In this document: piece by piece, positions 11,082-63,662 of the stretch
Position numbering within the stretch: the first letter of the stretch is position 1
Layout of the letters: each line of letters opens with the position of its first letter
Source: Syntrophales bacterium
GTDB taxonomy: Bacteria > Desulfobacterota > Syntrophia > Syntrophales > UBA2210
Reading direction: 5' to 3'
DNA length: 64,000 nucleotides
Assembly (NCBI GenBank): GCA_963666365.2
Contig: CAXXNF010000002.1
Location: forward strand, 2,368,001-2,432,000
Program-made: the position numbers and the translations under genes
The notes under the pieces: generated by a model
The model's input: the letters and a program-made list of their open reading frames with translations, nothing else
Told to the model about the DNA's origin: nothing
Database searches by the model: none

Positions 11082-11110
11082 ATTTTAAGTGCTCCCCTCA
11101 TGCTTGTCAA
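11082..11110 (-). promoter_or_regulatory. Sigma70-type promoter upstream of the giant gene
   Basis: Minus strand TTGACA (11110-11105), 17-bp spacer, TAAAAT (11087-11082). A second candidate, TTGGTC-17-TATAAT, lies about 45 bp downstream. Confidence 0.6.
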
Positions 11111-26986: not shown

Positions 26987-28319
26987 CGCCGTTCTCCTTC
27001 ATGATGGTGGTGACATGTGCGTGGAAGGTTCCCGACGCAACCTGCACCGATACGGGGGTTCCCTCGGTGAGAGACGTCACCTCCCTGATAATCTTCCCTT
27101 CTGGCAATCGCCGTGCAATGCCGTATCCCCGGCTCAATACGGACAGGGGATTGAGACTTTCCAGCAAGGACAGAGATTCATTCAGCCGGCGCCGTGCGCG
27201 ATCCTGACAGTAACGGCACTGAAAAACAGCCTCTTTGGTCAATGTGCGCACCCGGTACCGCCCTTCGGCAATGACTCCCTTCGGGTTGAACCGCCGAAGG
27301 GCACGGGCATGCTCCTGTAAGCGCCGCTCCTTTTCGGCGAGCCCCCGGTGAATCCTCCGGGAAAGCCCGTCGCGCATGTCATCGACAGACAGTCTCAGAT
27401 CAGCGATTGTCCTTCGGGGATCCACAAGACGTTCTGCAAGAAAATGGAGGCGCTCCCGCCTGCTCTGTTGCAGATGCCGGCACACCTGCGCCATGCGATT
27501 GCCCAGGGAGAACAGTGCGCTGCCTAATTCTCTCCGGTCGGGCGCCACGATTTCCGCCGCCGCCGAGGGCGTAGGCGCCCTCAGGTCGGCCGTAAAATCG
27601 GCAATGGTGAAATCTATCTCGTGTCCCACCGCCGATACGACGGGTATGCGGGATCTGTAGATTGCCCGTGCCACCCGTTCGTCGTTGAAGGGATAAAGGT
27701 CCTCCATGGAACCCCCTCCCCGGGTTACAATGATCACATCCACATCGGTCCGGCTGTTGAGCAGATCAACGGCGTGAGCGATCTCGGCGGCCGCTTCCAC
27801 TCCCTGGACCCTGACGGGCACGATCACAATATTGCCTGAGGGGAATCTTCTTTTTGTGATATTCAGAATATCACGTATCGCCGCCCCCGTGGGCGATGTG
27901 ACAATCCCGATTTTTTCGGGAAAACGCGGAAGGGGCCGTTTATGGGCCCTGTCGAAAAGCCCTTCCCCTTCAAGCCTTCGTTTCAGTTGCTCGAAGGCGA
28001 TTTGAAGGGCGCCGATCCCCCGTGGTTCCGCGGCCTCGACAATAAGCTGATATTCGCCACGGGGAACATAGACTGAAAGACGCGCACGACAGATGACGGC
28101 AAGTCCCTCTTCCATGTCGAACCCTATGGCGTTGCCGCTCCGGCGGAACACCACGGCCCGCACCTGGCTTCCCTCGTCTTTGAGGGTAAAATAGAGGTGC
28201 CCCGATCCGGGCCGGCGCAGATTTGAAATTTCACCGGCCACCCAGAGAACGCCGAATCCAGTCTCCAGGTACGCCTTTATATTGGCCGTCAGTTCTGTCA
28301 CAGTAAGAATATGTTCCAT
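26967..28319 (-). CDS. xseA: Exodeoxyribonuclease VII large subunit
   Basis: [41 protein letters not shown]. Confidence 0.97.
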
Positions 28320-28340
28320 AAAACAGGACGGGAAGAGGAC

Positions 28341-30098
28341 CTATTTTGCAGTCCCTTTTATTTCTCTTCTCCGTGAGGTGCCTCTCATTTTTTTCAACAC
28401 GTTCGATTCGATCCGTTTTGCCTGTTCCATCATGCCCGTCACATCATCCCCTTCAGCTTCGGGATCGAATTCCGCCTTTTCACTGATGCCGAATCTCATT
28501 CTCAGCACCTTCTCTTCTCGAGGAGTAAGCGTTGCCAGAATATTCCTCGTCTGTTTTGCCAGATCCATGCTCATGGTGGCATCGGAGGGCGACATAATTT
28601 TCTTATCCTCGATGAAATCTCCCAGAGAACTGTCCTCTTCCTCTCCGATGGGCGTTTCAAGAGATATAGGTTCTTTGGCGATTTTCAAGACTTTTCTGAC
28701 TTTTTCCAGAGGAAATTCCATCTTTTGCGCAATTTCCTCGGGGTTTGGCTCTCTTCCCAATTCCTGCACAAGGTAACGGGAAGTTCTGATCAGTTTATTT
28801 ATGGTTTCTATCATGTGCACGGGAATGCGAATCGTTCGTGCCTGGTCGGCGATCGCCCTGGTAATTGCCTGGCGAATCCACCAGGTGGCATAGGTGGAAA
28901 ACTTGTATCCACGTTGATATTCAAACTTTTCCACCGCTTTCATCAGCCCGATGTTCCCTTCCTGAATCAGGTCGAGAAACTGCAAGCCGCGGTTGGTGTA
29001 TTTTTTGGCGATACTTACCACAAGTCTCAGATTCGCCTGAATAAGTTTCTGTTTTGCCTCGTTTGCCTCAGATTCCCCTTTATTGATGAGTGCCACCAGC
29101 ACTTTCAACGATTCGGTCGATGCACCGATCTTGTCGGCAATCGCCCTTCTTTCGCGGCGGGAGTTCTTTACCACCTTCTCGGATTCCTTGAGCCTGGCAA
29201 GAGGAATATTCGCTTCTTTTGCAATTGCCTGTTCCTGTTCGGGTTTTTTCCTCATACGCGCACAGAGGTCGTCCAGATTTTTCAGCGAGAGGCCCGTTTT
29301 CTCCTTGCATGCCTGTATCTGGTCTTCCATCACCCTGATACGTTCTACATTCTTTTTAAGCTTAGCCACCATCCCGTTCACCCGCCGCTTGCTGAAATTT
29401 ATCTCTTTGCAAAGGGCGATGATGCGCTGGGTATTTTTTTCGATGTCTGAAGCGAGGTGCGCTTTACGGGCTTCGTCAATTCCTTTTTCCCTCAGTTCCC
29501 CTCTCAGGACGGTATTTGCCTCATGAACCGCACGAATCTGCTCGATGAGCGCCTGCACCCGCTCAATATGCACCTCTTCTTCCACAAACCCCGCTTCATC
29601 CTCAAGGCTGTCGATCACGCTTTTTATACGAATGTCGCCGTTTTTGAGCCGTTCTCCGATCCTGACCACCTCTTCCACGAAATAGGGGAGATTGAAAAGG
29701 GTCTGCATTACTTTGCGCTCCCCCTCTTCGATCTGTTTGGCGATTTCTACTTCTTCCTCTCGGCTCAGAAGGGAAACAAGCCCCATTTCCCGCAAATAGA
29801 GCTTTACGGGGTCTCCGGTCTTGCCCAGAGGAGAGGCCATGGCCGAAGGCTCTTTGTCGAGTTCTTTCTGATCGTCGGAGTCATCGGAAAATTTACTTCT
29901 CCCGGTGGGACTCTCCTTTTCCGCATCTATGACATCTATATTTTTTTCACCGAAAAACACAATAATATCGTCAATCTGATCGGAAGATACGACATCGGAC
30001 GGCAGCATGTCATTCATGTCATCATAGGTAAGAAAACCCTTTTCCTCACCCAGAGAAATCAGCTTTTTCACTTCATCCGAGTTAATGACTCTTTTCAT
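28341..30098 (-). CDS. rpoD: RNA polymerase group-1 sigma factor (RpoD) with divergent region 4.2
   Basis: Region 1.1, [54 protein letters not shown]; downstream of dnaG; AAGGAG SD before 30098. Confidence 0.93.
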
Positions 30099-30147
30099 GT
30101 AGTTTTTCTCCTTGTATGCCGGCGGCATTGATCATTCATATCACTCG

Positions 30148-31944
30148 TCACAGAAAGGTTTCCTGCGACTGGAGCCGTTTTTCTTCTCCGAGCAAACGCT
30201 CCTTTTCAAGCAGCAGCCTGCGGCAGAGATCTCCATCACCTTTTTCACGGGCCGTCACCATTTGCCGCATCAGCATTCGATGGCGCTCCTTGTACCATTT
30301 TGCCTTAATTTTCAGTATAGTATCACGAAACACCCTGTCGATGATTTCTTCTTTTTCAGGAGAATCCTCCATTGCCAACTTGAGAAGGGCGTCTCTCACC
30401 GCCCTGTCGTCCATGCTGTCGGCGATATCCGATATGGTCACCGCCTGCCGGTTATCATAGGCCGCACACACCCGCTCGGCAGCCGCCTTCAGGCGGGGAT
30501 CGGTAAAAAATCCCAGGATCCGCTCATTTTGGATCAGCGGTATCTTGTGGGAATATTCGACCATCAAATAGAGGCCATACAGTTCTATCGGCTCGAGTCT
30601 GCCCGCCGCCGGCTCTGCATGGGGCTTCACATTCGGCACTTCAGCGCTCCTCTTCGTCGGCGCCTTTTTTACCCGATCCTTGATGAGCGATTCATCGAGC
30701 CCCAGCTTTTCAGCCACCCTTTTGATGAATAGATTCCGCTGAATTACATCGGAAATGGCACTGATCAATGAAATCGCCCTCCCGGCAAGTACGGTCTGTT
30801 CTTCCATCGATCGATTGTCCCCCATGACGGAGTCGATATAATAATCGACCATGGACGGGGCATGGGCAATCAATTCGTCCATTGCATCCCTGCCATGGGT
30901 CCTCACGTAATCATCGGGATCATGACCCTCCGGCAGAGGGACTATTCGCGCACGGACCTCCGCCTCGAGGAAAAGCGGCAGACTCCGTTCTATGGCAGTG
31001 CGCCCCCCCGCGTCACCGTCGTAGAGGAGCACGACATTCCGGGTAAACCTTCTGAGCAGTTCCACCTGGCGCGGGGTAAGGGCTGTGCCGAGCGTGGCCA
31101 CCACATTTCTGATACCCGCATTCCACAGCGAAAGCAGATCGAAATACCCCTCTACAATGATGCAGCCGTCACTTCGCTGAATATCTCCCTTTGTACGATA
31201 CAGACCGTAAAGATTGTCTCCCTTTATATAGAGGGGAGATTCCGGAGAATTAAGATATTTCGGTTCCTCGCCTCCCAGCGCCCTCCCGCCGAAGGCAACC
31301 ACATCTCCGTTCACATTTTCTATCGGCAGCATCAGCCTGTTGCGGAAACGATCATAACAGGCGGATTCATTTTTAACGACCAGAAGCCCCGCTTTCTCTG
31401 CGAGCCCCTGTGAAATTTTAGAAGCGGCAAAATAACTCCTGAGGTTCCCCCATCCCTCCGGGGCATACCCGATCTGAAATGTTTCGATGAGGGAAGCCCC
31501 CACCCCCCGTGCGTCAAGGTAATCACGGGCGATCCGCCCCTTTTCCGATGAAAAGTTCCTCCGATAATACTCGGCGGTCATGCGGTGCAGCGCCAGCAGA
31601 TTTTCCCGCTCACTGTGCTTCCTTTTTTCACCTGCCGTCATCCGCCGCAGGGGGATCTCAATACCGGCTCTGGCGGCAAGGTGTCGAACCGCCTCGGGAA
31701 ACGTGCAGGTGTTCACCTTCATCAGAAACGAATATACATTCCCCCCTTCGCCGCACCCATAGCACCGGTATATCTGCTTTTCAGGGTTTACCGTAAATGA
31801 TGGCGCTTTCTCTTTATGAAAGGGACAGAGGCCTACGTAATGCCTGCCTGCTTTTTTCAGCGTAACGAATTCAGAAATGAGATCGACGATATCCGTCCTG
31901 TGCTTTACCTCTTCGACTATTTCGTGAGGAATATATCCGTTCAA
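30148..31944 (-). CDS. dnaG: DNA primase
   Basis: CPFH..CYGC zinc finger, FGGR, KYLNSPES, VEGYFD, YDGDAGG TOPRIM, DPDD. Confidence 0.97.
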   Translation of the reverse strand: MNGYIPHEIVEEVKHRTDIVDLISEFVTLKKAGRHYVGLCPFHKEKAPSFTVNPEKQIYRCYGCGEGGNVYSFLMKVNTCTFPEAVRHLAARAGIEIPLRRMTAGEKRKHSERENLLALHRMTAEYYRRNFSSEKGRIARDYLDARGVGASLIETFQIGYAPEGWGNLRSYFAASKISQGLAEKAGLLVVKNESACYDRFRNRLMLPIENVNGDVVAFGGRALGGEEPKYLNSPESPLYIKGDNLYGLYRTKGDIQRSDGCIIVEGYFDLLSLWNAGIRNVVATLGTALTPRQVELLRRFTRNVVLLYDGDAGGRTAIERSLPLFLEAEVRARIVPLPEGHDPDDYVRTHGRDAMDELIAHAPSMVDYYIDSVMGDNRSMEEQTVLAGRAISLISAISDVIQRNLFIKRVAEKLGLDESLIKDRVKKAPTKRSAEVPNVKPHAEPAAGRLEPIELYGLYLMVEYSHKIPLIQNERILGFFTDPRLKAAAERVCAAYDNRQAVTISDIADSMDDRAVRDALLKLAMEDSPEKEEIIDRVFRDTILKIKAKWYKERHRMLMRQMVTAREKGDGDLCRRLLLEKERLLGEEKRLQSQETFL

Positions 31945-31971: not shown

Positions 31972-32418
31972 TCAGCTGGACAGGACCGCCTTTACCAGTT
32001 CGCTTACGAGTTTTCCGTCGGCTTTCCCCGTCACCACCGGCATGAGTTCCTTCATCACCTTTCCCATGTCCCGCACAGTGGTTGCACCGACCTTATCCAC
32101 CGCTTTGGCGATCTCGGCCCTAATCTCCTCTTCGGACATCTCCTCCGGCATAAAACTCTTTATTATTTCAAGTTCTTTCTGTTCCTTTTCAACCAAATCA
32201 CTCCTGCCGCCTTTGGCGAATTGTTCAATTGAATCATGCCGCTGTTTTACCATGGAAGAGAAGACCTGCATCACTTCAACCTCTCCCAGCTTTTTTTTAT
32301 GGTCTATCTCCTTGTTGTGAAGCGCAGACTTCATCAATCGGATCGTCGAGAGCTTTAACGCATCCTTCGCCCTTGCCGCCTCTTTCATTTCAGCATCAAG
32401 TTTTTCCTGTATATCCAT
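31972..32418 (-). CDS. GatB/YqeY domain protein
   Basis: MKEAARAKD..LSTIR, QR.DSIEQF.KGGR, DMGKVMK. Confidence 0.92.
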   Translation of the reverse strand: MDIQEKLDAEMKEAARAKDALKLSTIRLMKSALHNKEIDHKKKLGEVEVMQVFSSMVKQRHDSIEQFAKGGRSDLVEKEQKELEIIKSFMPEEMSEEEIRAEIAKAVDKVGATTVRDMGKVMKELMPVVTGKADGKLVSELVKAVLSS

Positions 32419-32472
32419 GATCGCTTCCGCCTCTTCATATAGAATAGGGACCCCTTGTTCGAAAGGCAACCC

Positions 32473-32644: not shown

Positions 32645-32672
32645 AATGTAATACTGTCTTTCCCTTTGTCAA
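32645..32672 (-). promoter_or_regulatory. Candidate sigma70 promoter for yqeY-dnaG-rpoD
   Basis: Minus strand TTGACA (32672-32667), 16 bp, TACATT (32650-32645). Confidence 0.5.
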
Positions 32673-63633: not shown

Positions 63634-63662
63634 ATACTACCTCGCCACTGTGCTTCCGTCAA
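63634..63662 (-). promoter_or_regulatory. Sigma70-type promoter for biotin carrier gene
   Basis: Minus strand TTGACG (63662-63657), 17 bp, TAGTAT (63639-63634). Confidence 0.55.

Follow-up and report, generated by a model that had tools for sequence, protein, structure and literature searches.

The primary sigma factor of the Syntrophales is probably a split factor, in which recognition of the −35 box would be supplied in trans by a separate 92-aa protein. RpoD in this order has lost the helix-turn-helix (HTH) of region 4.2, one of the most conserved DNA-reading modules of bacterial primary sigmas; a small, conserved protein encoded elsewhere in the genome carries an intact copy of that module and co-occurs with the degenerate RpoD; and the −35 signal persists at the promoters. 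In the proposed arrangement, the primary sigma would be a two-polypeptide unit. RpoD, retaining regions 1.1 to 4.1, would bind core, recognise the −10 element and presumably touch the beta-flap through region 4.1, while the essential-looking 92-aa protein, in which an N-terminal four-Cys module precedes an intact counterpart of the final ~40 residues of group-1 sigmas, would provide the missing HTH. It would dock on RNA polymerase where sigma region 4.2 would otherwise sit, most likely against the conserved region 4.1 of RpoD and/or its basic tail, and from there read TTGACA with the usual 17-bp spacing to the −10 element.

The RpoD tail in the source genome and its relatives

The window, a stretch of 64,000 nucleotides from the source genome (G000), contains rpoD as the last gene of a yqeY-dnaG-rpoD row. 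The following features are referred to by their positions in the window.

31972..32469, minus: yqeY-like gene, first in the row (Pfam YqeY, 168 bits)
30148..31944, minus: dnaG (primase), immediately upstream of rpoD (Pfam DNAG_N, Zn_ribbon_DnaG, Toprim and DnaB_bind)
28341..30128, minus: rpoD, 595 aa, the sole group-1 sigma of the genome (ORF; Pfam r1.1, r1.2, r2 and r3; NCBIfam RpoD equivalog)
28488..28538, minus: region 4.1, residues 531–547, fully canonical, the sole stretch aligned by Pfam Sigma70_r4
28443..28490, minus: variable acidic loop, about residues 547–562, replacing the first HTH helix of region 4.2 (AF2 and alignment)
28383..28442, minus: single long helix, about residues 563–582, a recognition-helix remnant with altered DNA-facing positions (AF2 and alignment)
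28344..28382, minus: basic C-terminal tail, about residues 583–595, moderately conserved (alignment of orthologues)

The earlier note on this DNA had described an otherwise canonical RpoD whose region-4.2 HTH is rewritten by substitution rather than by frameshift, and this description holds. The 595-aa frame ends exactly as quoted there, and regions 1.1 to 4.1 of the dnaG-linked protein are canonical, with Pfam scores of 72.7 (r1_1), 48.9 (r1_2), 85.1 (r2) and 103.1 bits (r3), all above their cut-offs. The protein passes the NCBIfam RpoD equivalog NF004208 (624.4 against 555) and falls slightly under the threshold of RpoD_Cterm, TIGR02393 (349.9 against 354). The Sigma70_r4 profile scores it at 21.6 bits, under the cut-off of 24.1, and aligns residues 531–547 only, corresponding to profile positions 2–18 of 50. 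A BLASTP alignment of the tail with a canonical deltaproteobacterial RpoD tail is gapless over 106 positions, 67 of them identical, so the change in region 4.2 is a substitution without an indel. Moreover, a contig from an independent study (run X5) that covers window positions 28200–28800 differs by 15 substitutions and zero indels. No frameshifted HTH concealed at the 3' end of rpoD was found: the frame is open, and a Sigma70_r4 search over all six frames of the genome turns up no hidden canonical frame at the locus. Rfam gives zero matches at gathering thresholds across the window.

Structurally, AF2 modelling of the C-terminal 110 residues with the orthologue alignment yields the two helices of region 4.1, a disordered loop and one long helix; within this piece, residues 62–77 form no helix, pLDDT drops below 50 at residues 71–76, and the helix spans residues 78–97. 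The tail thus has no HTH, and RpoD by itself very probably cannot read the −35 box. The basic tail may serve as a docking surface.

The same kind of tail recurs throughout the order. The canonical HTH is absent from all 38 inspected Syntrophales orthologues, which comprise the source genome, 29 relatives and 8 of 10 further RpoD regions; the two regions left out are L139 (G028), where the search pattern finds no tail, and L142 (G032), a 487-aa paralogue with a canonical tail. It is likewise missing from RpoD in four more records titled Syntrophales, Smithellaceae or delta proteobacterium. Outside the order, a strictly canonical region-4.2 tail is present at 73 of 80 genome-contig loci from other deltaproteobacteria, Myxococcota, Bdellovibrionota and Acidobacteriota. 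Across 30 orthologues, region 4.1 shows a mean pairwise identity of 0.98 and is identical to that of canonical relatives, against 0.21, with indels between relatives, for the loop replacing the first HTH helix. The remnant helix has a mean identity of 0.59 within Syntrophales and the basic tail one of 0.64. The former HTH segment has therefore diverged among relatives much as random decay, which the earlier note associated with a dying paralogue, would predict; the gene itself is no such paralogue, since its remaining regions are conserved and it is the sole group-1 sigma of the genome. In the closest family, many orthologues retain recognition-helix positions (E-R-A-x-Q-I-E) in the remnant helix, and there RpoD itself may keep some residual DNA contact. 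In distant families the segment contains prolines, as in the tails of G040, G031 and G039.

A profile search counts one group-1 sigma in the 4.0-Mb source genome. The remaining sigma-70-family complement comprises RpoH (NF005143, 316 > 241), FliA (TIGR02479, 261 > 190) and a pair of frames, 200 and 204 aa long, taken as putative ECF-type sigmas from size and tails rather than from a family scan. The second canonical RpoD that had been postulated elsewhere in the genome was not found by the group-1 profile search or the six-frame Sigma70_r4 search; what does exist elsewhere is a canonical 4.2 module, on a 92-aa protein. Among the relatives, 40 of 41 searched have no long frame with a canonical tail, the exception being G032, and an extra sigma of ~396–497 aa with canonical 4.2 is found in some genomes of the clade (G032, G338, G088 and G354).

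A 92-aa protein with the complementary module

The gene for this protein lies outside the window, ~1.69 Mb from rpoD.

G000:C2:702399-702677: 92 aa, with a sigma-4.2 HTH that is intact and four invariant Cys

Its Sigma70_r4 match (PF04545) scores 49.4 bits against the cut-off of 24.1 and is partial, covering profile positions 18–50 of 50 with residues 70–102 of the 120-aa frame. The profile is thereby divided over two separate polypeptides holding complementary sigma modules: RpoD matches positions 2–18, and the small protein matches 18–50, the part absent from RpoD. Its best NCBIfam and PDB matches are to the extreme C-terminus of group-1 sigmas; among the PDB matches is the chain family whose crystal structures contain −35 DNA (1ku3/1ku7). 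Over residues 44–85 the alignment with the final ~40 residues of group-1 sigmas is gapless, recognition helix included. The HTH helices are 0.95–0.97 identical across 30 orthologues, against 0.21–0.59 in the matching RpoD segments. N-terminal to this module, the invariant Cys residues occupy positions 7, 18, 23 and 35 (C-x10-C-x4-C-x11-C), a pattern that probably binds metal. The gene has a conserved start codon and a Shine-Dalgarno sequence; a TTGACA promoter of its own is also predicted.

The distribution of the small protein follows that of the degenerate RpoD tail. An orthologue (E <= 1e-40) is present in 144 of the 151 Syntrophales genomes that are at least 90% complete. In a sample of the phylum, it occurs in 10/10 genomes of the order versus 2/291 others, and in the two carriers outside the order, members of one family (f20), the RpoD tail is degenerate as well. 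Eleven phylum genomes gave no match at all; five were re-checked, and four of these have canonical or contig-truncated sigma tails. Within the order, the search did not find the small protein in 7 of the 151 genomes, among them G029, which is 98% complete in 10 contigs, and two genomes of 100% completeness, G393 and G436. Genera g13, g15, g225 and g255 each include a genome in which it was not found, and other members of these genera carry it.

Complex prediction for the C-terminal 110 residues of RpoD with the small protein gives a score of 0.49 ('weak support'; best of three controls 0.00), which lies in a range where predictions fail more often than they hold, except for pairings that were likely beforehand. 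Of 157 solved complexes, 116 reach the score mark, as do 2 of 215 mismatched pairs; scores of 0.60 or lower comprise just 18 of the 157 solved complexes together with both mismatches that passed. The runs share at least 80% of contacts, with a partner pLDDT of at least 63. Modelled alone from a 30-row alignment, the small protein is predicted poorly by AF2 (pLDDT 51.9).

The −35 signal at Syntrophales promoters

At least four promoter candidates with TTGAC(A/G) and 16–17 bp spacing had been proposed in the window, four of them by position. Three of these are recovered, all on the minus strand as TTGAC[AG]-N16/17-TAnnnT; at the fourth, 37114, TTGACA is present, and the −10 candidate does not end in T.

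11082..11110, minus: promoter candidate TTGACA-N17-TAAAAT (pattern listing)
32645..32672, minus: promoter candidate TTGACA-N16-TAnnnT, ~175 nt upstream of yqeY (pattern listing)
63634..63662, minus: promoter candidate TTGACG-N17-TAGTAT (pattern listing)

Given the genome-wide spacing signal, the candidate at 32645..32672 presumably functions as a promoter. In promoter-oriented intergenic DNA of the source genome, TTGACA/TATAAT pairs with at most one mismatch per hexamer peak at spacings of 17 (56 pairs) and 18 (32 pairs), compared with ~13 at other spacings; the peak is found neither in the control orientation nor in coding DNA. TTGAC ranks first of 1024 5-mers located 17–18 bp upstream of −10-like hexamers, with 52 occurrences against 7.7 expected. 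Additionally, of 36 tRNA genes that come first in their cluster, 23 have an exact TTGACA upstream, versus 2/36 in antisense and 1/36 downstream. The 17-bp excess is kept in genomes with fully degenerate RpoD tails, in which the counts at spacings 17/14/20 are 186/89/86 (G030), 127/63/60 (G036), 121/27/19 (G040), 324/137/127 (G038) and 82/36/37 (G042); the excess is strongest in G040. By these counts, TTGACA at 17-bp spacing is strongly selected and the −35 box evidently still in use.

A position-frequency profile over all TATAAT-like hexamers (1795 sites) displays neither a −35 signal nor one of TG at positions −3/−2 of the hexamers, being flat because most such hexamers are not promoters, and k-mer and spacing tests were used instead. 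Usage of an extended −10, with TG at −15/−14, independent of the −35 box is accordingly not what the source genome displays: TTGAC is enriched at 17–18 bp and TG is not.

Alternative readings and precedents

Among the alternatives to a split primary sigma, one draws on the same data: the small protein could be a free-standing global transcription factor that binds TTGACA alone and recruits or stabilises an RNA polymerase whose RpoD cannot touch the −35 box, much as class-II activators or MotA, the adaptor of T4, do. The complex score of 0.49, set against 0.00 for the best control, would fit a transient contact, and RpoD keeps a basic C-terminal tail; the C-terminal tail of canonical sigma-70 is a known target of activators and of MotA. 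The sharp 17-bp spacing and the perfect TTGACA at most tRNA promoters, however, imply a fixed geometry of the −35 reader relative to sigma region 2, which a stably docked module would give. This alternative is somewhat unlikely, and the two readings differ in affinity rather than in kind.

Alternatively, RpoD itself could read the −35 box through its remnant helix and basic tail, a novel non-HTH solution, and the small protein would do something else, for example act as a decoy or competitor or regulate a subset of promoters. The E, R and Q kept at recognition-helix positions in many orthologues of the closest family and the basic character of the tail speak for this possibility. It is nevertheless quite improbable: the first HTH helix is gone in all orthologues, and the proline-containing segments of G040, G031 and G039 have no helix-like pattern, yet G040 is the genome with the strongest 17-bp TTGAC excess. 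Self-reading by RpoD would also leave unexplained both the conservation of the small-protein HTH and its co-occurrence with a degenerate RpoD.

The earlier note itself had suggested a '−35-blind' or altered-specificity sigma using extended −10 promoters, alongside another RpoD of canonical type in the same genome. The sub-threshold Sigma70_r4 match of RpoD agrees with this idea. The single group-1 sigma of the source genome, the scarcity of long-frame canonical tails among relatives, the first rank of TTGAC at 17–18 bp and the lack of a TG signal all weigh against it, and the tRNA promoters contradict it, leaving it highly improbable. That the tail reflects an error of assembly or sequencing, or that the gene is a pseudogene in decay, is a reading for which no favourable point was found, and it has next to no probability given the open frame, the conserved regions 1.1–4.1, the same tail architecture in 38 of 38 orthologues and the indel-free contig from another study.

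Precedents for the split sigma come from the two-subunit factors SigO-RsoA of B. subtilis, gp55/gp33 of phage T4, gp33/gp34 of phage SPO1 and Sig7-Sig8 of Tn916, in which, as outlined in a preprint, two polypeptides jointly give region 2 and region 4 functions (bioRxiv 10.64898/2026.10.01.756105). The Syntrophales arrangement, as proposed from sequence, would resemble these in dividing promoter recognition over two polypeptides. To our knowledge, all known split sigmas are alternative, phage or mobile-element factors divided between regions 2 and 4, whereas here the factor concerned is the housekeeping group-1 sigma of an entire order, and the division would run through region 4 itself: RpoD keeps 4.1, while the 4.2 HTH is carried by the partner. 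RpoD furthermore holds a length-matched degenerate remnant, and the partner bears a Cys4 module. With canonical RpoD/SigA region 4.2 on −35 DNA (PDB 1KU7 family), in which the E. coli contacts are R584, E585, R586, R588 and Q589, the system shares the recognition helix of the small protein and the retained TTGACA-N17-TAnnnT promoters; it differs in that the HTH lies outside RpoD and a Cys-rich module takes the place of region 4.1 on the small protein.

Sigma appropriation by AsiA/MotA of phage T4 rests on a similar idea: a DNA-binding protein that is not part of sigma-70 attaches to its far C-terminus and takes over from region 4.2, reading a box near −30/−35. The small protein has no sequence relationship to it, is host-encoded, constitutive and clade-wide, and would read the ordinary −35 consensus rather than a new box. 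Primary sigmas with divergent region 4 are also found in Campylobacterota (sigma-80 of Helicobacter/Campylobacter) and Bacteroidota (sigma-A), which are alike in that a housekeeping sigma has a region 4 off consensus. Their promoters, however, are not known to carry TTGACA, which is kept here and perfect at most tRNA promoters.

Literature searches on sigma region 4 or 4.2 or the primary sigma of Syntrophus, Smithella and Syntrophales, with subscription-only papers outside their scope, returned nothing on the subject among the matches listed, and the titles and abstracts of work on Syntrophus aciditrophicus RpoD hold nothing on sigma region 4. As far as these searches reach, this would be the first split housekeeping sigma. 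If the proposal is correct, a free-living bacterium can have its sigma-4.2/−35 interaction provided in trans, control of the attachment of the −35 reader becomes a new route to global regulation, and the pair offers a natural template for modular sigma factors in synthetic biology. It bears equally on promoter prediction and heterologous expression for Syntrophales (relatives of Smithella and Syntrophus), which are key in methanogenic degradation.

For the Cys4 module, the WhiB-like (Wbl) Fe-S proteins of Actinobacteria provide a precedent for a small cysteine-cluster protein at sigma region 4; they are small Cys4 proteins with the motif C-Xn-C-X2-C-X5-C that bind sigma-A region 4 and are not known to have a sigma-type HTH. 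The small protein differs in its Cys spacing, in having a sigma-type HTH and in giving no Pfam Whib match at E <= 1. It is conceivable, though unlikely, that the 92-aa protein is an obligatory extra holoenzyme subunit whose Cys4 module acts as a redox- or metal-sensitive switch (Zn or Fe-S), gating global −35-dependent transcription, including that of the tRNA genes and from the small gene's own TTGACA promoter, by reversible attachment. Such a switch would give these energy-limited syntrophs a primary sigma with a detachable, signal-sensing DNA-recognition module.

Among 50,697 phage records, tblastn finds no match to the small protein at E <= 1e-3. For the Cys-rich N-terminus (46 residues), the look-alikes in the ESM Atlas belong to viral clusters, the best at 0.83 and all below 0.9, and serve as a lead only. 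Annotation of ten distant family representatives goes no further than 'hypothetical protein' or a generic sigma label. If the split-sigma proposal holds, thousands of proteins labelled 'hypothetical' or 'sigma factor-like HTH' would be probable core transcription components. The combination of a Cys-rich module with a sigma-4.2-like HTH need not always denote a split sigma, and metagenomes contain small Cys-rich proteins of this architecture that form a wider family without a name.

Region 4.2 of the housekeeping sigma factor

The 4.0-Mb source genome G000 (two contigs, 94% complete) encodes a single group-1 sigma factor, with yqeY and dnaG lying immediately upstream of its gene, and this count contradicts the second canonical RpoD that the earlier note had supposed elsewhere in the genome. 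The assigned sigma factors are:

window 28341–30128, minus strand: rpoD, sigma factor, 595-aa ORF
G000: RpoH (NF005143, 316.5 > 241)
G000: FliA (TIGR02479, 261 > 190)

Two further frames of 200 and 204 aa are taken to be ECF-type, judged by size and tails, and the other Sigma70_r4 matches in G000 appear, from sequence alone, to be LuxR-type response regulators and a transposase-like HTH. Two identical 254-aa frames about 35 kb apart (G000:C2:1888541-1888672, locus L009, and C2:1923421-1923552, locus L010), also taken to be LuxR-type response regulators, suggest a recent duplication.

RpoD regions 1.1, 1.2, 2 and 3 score far over their Pfam cut-offs. Sigma70_r4 matches residues 531–547 only, corresponding to profile positions 2–18 of 50, at 21.6 bits against a Pfam cut-off of 24.1. 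The NCBIfam RpoD equivalog model is satisfied (624.4 versus 555), and the NCBIfam model of the RpoD C-terminal domain is narrowly missed (349.9 versus 354). Against a canonical deltaproteobacterial RpoD the tail gives a gapless alignment (67 of 106 residues identical), indicating substitution rather than a frameshift, and a contig from another study carries 15 substitutions and no indel across the same region. Together, these results confirm the rewritten region-4.2 tail that the earlier note had described. A six-frame Sigma70_r4 search of the whole genome reveals no hidden frame at the rpoD locus.

An RpoD match is present in 39 of 40 relatives from the same family and order, and 38 tails were inspected (G000, 29 relatives and eight of ten further regions). 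All 38 share one layout in the tail alignment: region 4.1 is identical, the acidic stretch after it varies and contains indels, and a helix-like remnant then leads into a basic tail. Mean pairwise identity is 0.98 in region 4.1, 0.21 in the former first HTH helix, 0.59 in the former recognition helix and 0.64 in the basic tail, and the remnant segment of distant families contains prolines. An artefact or a paralogue is rejected as the source of this rpoD, since it is the sole group-1 sigma and its tail layout recurs in all 38 of these tails. AF2 modelling of the tail alignment (pLDDT 67.6) yields two region-4.1 helices, a disordered loop and a single long helix, and hence no helix-turn-helix.

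A scan of public genomes, covering 1 of 64 parts of the collection, gave 80 loci. Strictly canonical tails occur at 73 of these (other deltaproteobacteria, Myxococcota, Bdellovibrionota and Acidobacteriota), the search pattern returned no tail for three, and variant tails occur at four, in records titled Syntrophales bacterium, Smithellaceae bacterium, delta proteobacterium and 'uncultured archaeon'. At locus L103 (genome G337), the RpoD tail after region 4.1 is long and extremely acidic rather than a helix-plus-basic-tail remnant, and the small protein described below is still present (E 7.6e-52).

A small Cys4 protein and its distribution

The genome-wide search reveals a short frame matching Sigma70_r4 positions 18–50, exactly the part missing from RpoD:

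G000:C2:702399-702677: small-protein gene, 92 aa, about 1.69 Mb from rpoD

The start codon lies four codons ahead of a Y-x-C-K-K motif, with a Shine-Dalgarno sequence upstream in nearly all orthologues. Across an alignment of 30 orthologues, cysteines 7, 18, 23 and 35 and two tryptophans are invariant, and the HTH is essentially so (mean identity of its helices 0.95 and 0.97). The protein scores 49.4 bits against Sigma70_r4 in Pfam, and in both NCBIfam and PDB it aligns best with the final ~40 residues of group-1 sigmas rather than with RpoH, RpoS or ECF factors; the N-terminal 43 residues matched nothing. Public labels for the family read 'hypothetical' or 'sigma factor-like helix-turn-helix DNA-binding protein'. 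A Wbl identity is rejected by the lack of a Pfam match and the different Cys spacing.

Some genomes carry second, more divergent copies (62–68% identity), and in G429:C2 two loci hold two near-equal copies. The divergent second copies lie at:

G023:C11:33873-34118
G388:C1:1015285-1015530
G397:C92:930-1172
G403:C103:398-637

Orthologues (E <= 1e-42) occur in 37 of 41 genomes of the relatives sample; in G035 the gene is broken between contig ends. In the order-wide sample, 144 of 151 genomes, each at least 90% complete, encode the protein (E <= 1e-40). It was not found in the other seven: the genera of G029, G377, G436, G407 and G438 have other members that encode it, and G393 and G412 are without such backing. 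Among 301 genomes sampled across the phylum, it occurs in all ten order members and, outside the order, in two of 291 genomes, G042 and G088 of family f20 (E ~1e-32), whose 578-aa RpoD-like protein also has a degenerate tail. All other genomes of that sample with a match give it through the canonical RpoD C-terminus only, mostly in frames of at least 470 aa; of 11 without a match, five were re-checked: the sigma tails of four are canonical or cut off by a contig end, and G113 gave none. The small protein is present in G337 and G338, the genomes of two variant-tail records, absent from a Syntrophobacteraceae control genome having canonical RpoD, and not seen in G340 (a Syntrophales record) or G339 (a 1.2-Mb partial genome). 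Its distribution coincides almost exactly with that of degenerate RpoD tails.

Among the matches listed, an extra sigma of ~396–497 aa with a fully canonical region 4.2 is found in a minority of the clade's genomes, namely G032 (L166), G338 (L181), G088 (L167) and G354 (C26:2260-2388), the G088 protein satisfying RpoD_Cterm (391.6 > 354); the order-wide sample holds ten further second matches.

Use of the -35 box

Promoters of G000 were analysed on a crude gene calling (3221 ORFs), with intergenic DNA split by orientation. TTGACA/TATAAT pairs with at most one mismatch each number 56 at spacing 17, 32 at 18 and ~13 elsewhere in promoter-oriented intergenic DNA, and neither coding DNA nor intergenic DNA of the opposite orientation shows such a peak. 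With no motif presupposed, the top 5-mer 17–18 bp ahead of -10-like hexamers is TTGAC (52 observed versus 7.7 expected), followed by its shifted versions, and controls show nothing comparable. Genome-wide, TTGACN-N17-TAnnnT occurs 188 times, versus 57–114 for other spacings.

Specifically, 36 of the 48 predicted tRNA genes are first in their cluster, and an exact TTGACA is found in the 150 nt ahead of 23 of these 36, mostly 38–75 nt from the mature 5' end, against 2/36 on the antisense strand, 1/36 downstream and an expectation of 0.04 per region. A T-A follows TTGACA at 17-bp spacing. These promoters combine a perfect TTGACA, often with A/G next, with a weak -10 whose good conservation is limited to T-A, and a C-rich stretch lies 1–4 nt past the hexamer (C in 9–10 of 20 per position). 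Spacing 17 is also 2- to 5-fold more frequent than spacings 14 and 20 in G042 of family f20 and in four distant order members whose tails are fully degenerate.

The '-35-blind' sigma proposed earlier is contradicted by the TTGAC enrichment and the tRNA promoters, and its suggested dependence on an extended -10 fails as well, no TG signal being seen at -10-like hexamers of G000.

The small gene itself has a near-consensus promoter candidate, TTGACA-N16-TATATT (G000:C2, L124:1454-1481), and a TTGAC-N15-18-TA candidate precedes the gene by no more than 220 nt in 26 of 30 orthologues; if the small protein reads the -35 box, this candidate promoter suggests a positive feedback loop. In genome G038, dozens of near-identical promoter-like strings (TTGACATAC...TTCC[C/T]TATA[T/C]T) recur at many loci; a promoter cassette present in many copies, or a dispersed repeat, may account for them. 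Across window 1–64000, no Rfam family attains its gathering score.

A primary sigma probably divided between two proteins

The organism is not -35-blind: a -35 reader with canonical specificity and geometry must exist, RpoD itself cannot be that reader in most of the order, and the 92-aa Cys4 protein is the only protein bearing the required helix. A split primary sigma is the model that explains this most economically: regions 1.1 to 4.1 would come from RpoD, and the 4.2 HTH would be brought in trans by the small protein. Given the unchanged 17-bp spacing and the intact region 4.1, this module would sit at the usual region-4.2 site, docked on RpoD region 4.1 and/or the retained basic tail. From this model we infer the association of the two proteins, the docking site, metal binding and necessity. 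Complex prediction for the C-terminal 110 aa of RpoD with the small protein gives 0.49 (best control 0.00), graded as weak support: 116 of 157 solved complexes reach the mark, as do 2 of 215 mismatched pairs, but at 0.60 or below it is reached by only 18 of the 157 and by both passing mismatches. At least 80% of contacts agree between runs, and the partner's pLDDT does not fall below 63.

The probable reading is that, across the whole order and one further lineage, the -35 reader of the housekeeping sigma has been transferred to a conserved mini-protein distinct from RpoD. Its main rival, a looser, activator-like variant of the same in-trans idea, is rather unlikely. The finding is real and of more interest than the first, -35-blind reading.

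Analogies to a primary sigma divided in this way include T4 AsiA/MotA, Wbl proteins and the divergent primary sigmas of Campylobacterota and Bacteroidota. Open-access text yielded no literature linking Syntrophus, Smithella or Syntrophales to region 4.2 or the primary sigma factor. Two-subunit sigmas have been described in SPO1 gp33/gp34, T4 gp55/gp33, B. subtilis SigO-RsoA and Tn916 Sig7-Sig8 (bioRxiv 10.64898/2026.10.01.756105). Every one of these is an alternative or mobile-element factor, and the division falls between regions 2 and 4.

Searching 1.84 billion representatives with a profile gave 11 matches at E <= 1e-30 and 596 at E <= 1e-10. It also brought up more remote small proteins that share the Cys-rich-plus-HTH layout, none of them named. 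This wider family comprises metagenomic proteins of 80–170 aa that join a Cys-rich N-part to a sigma-4.2-like HTH (P0131, P0133, P0139, P0145, P0149, P0151, P0154, P0157 and others), one subfamily of which displays an R-C-P-K...W-P...C...C-x-W-W-V pattern.
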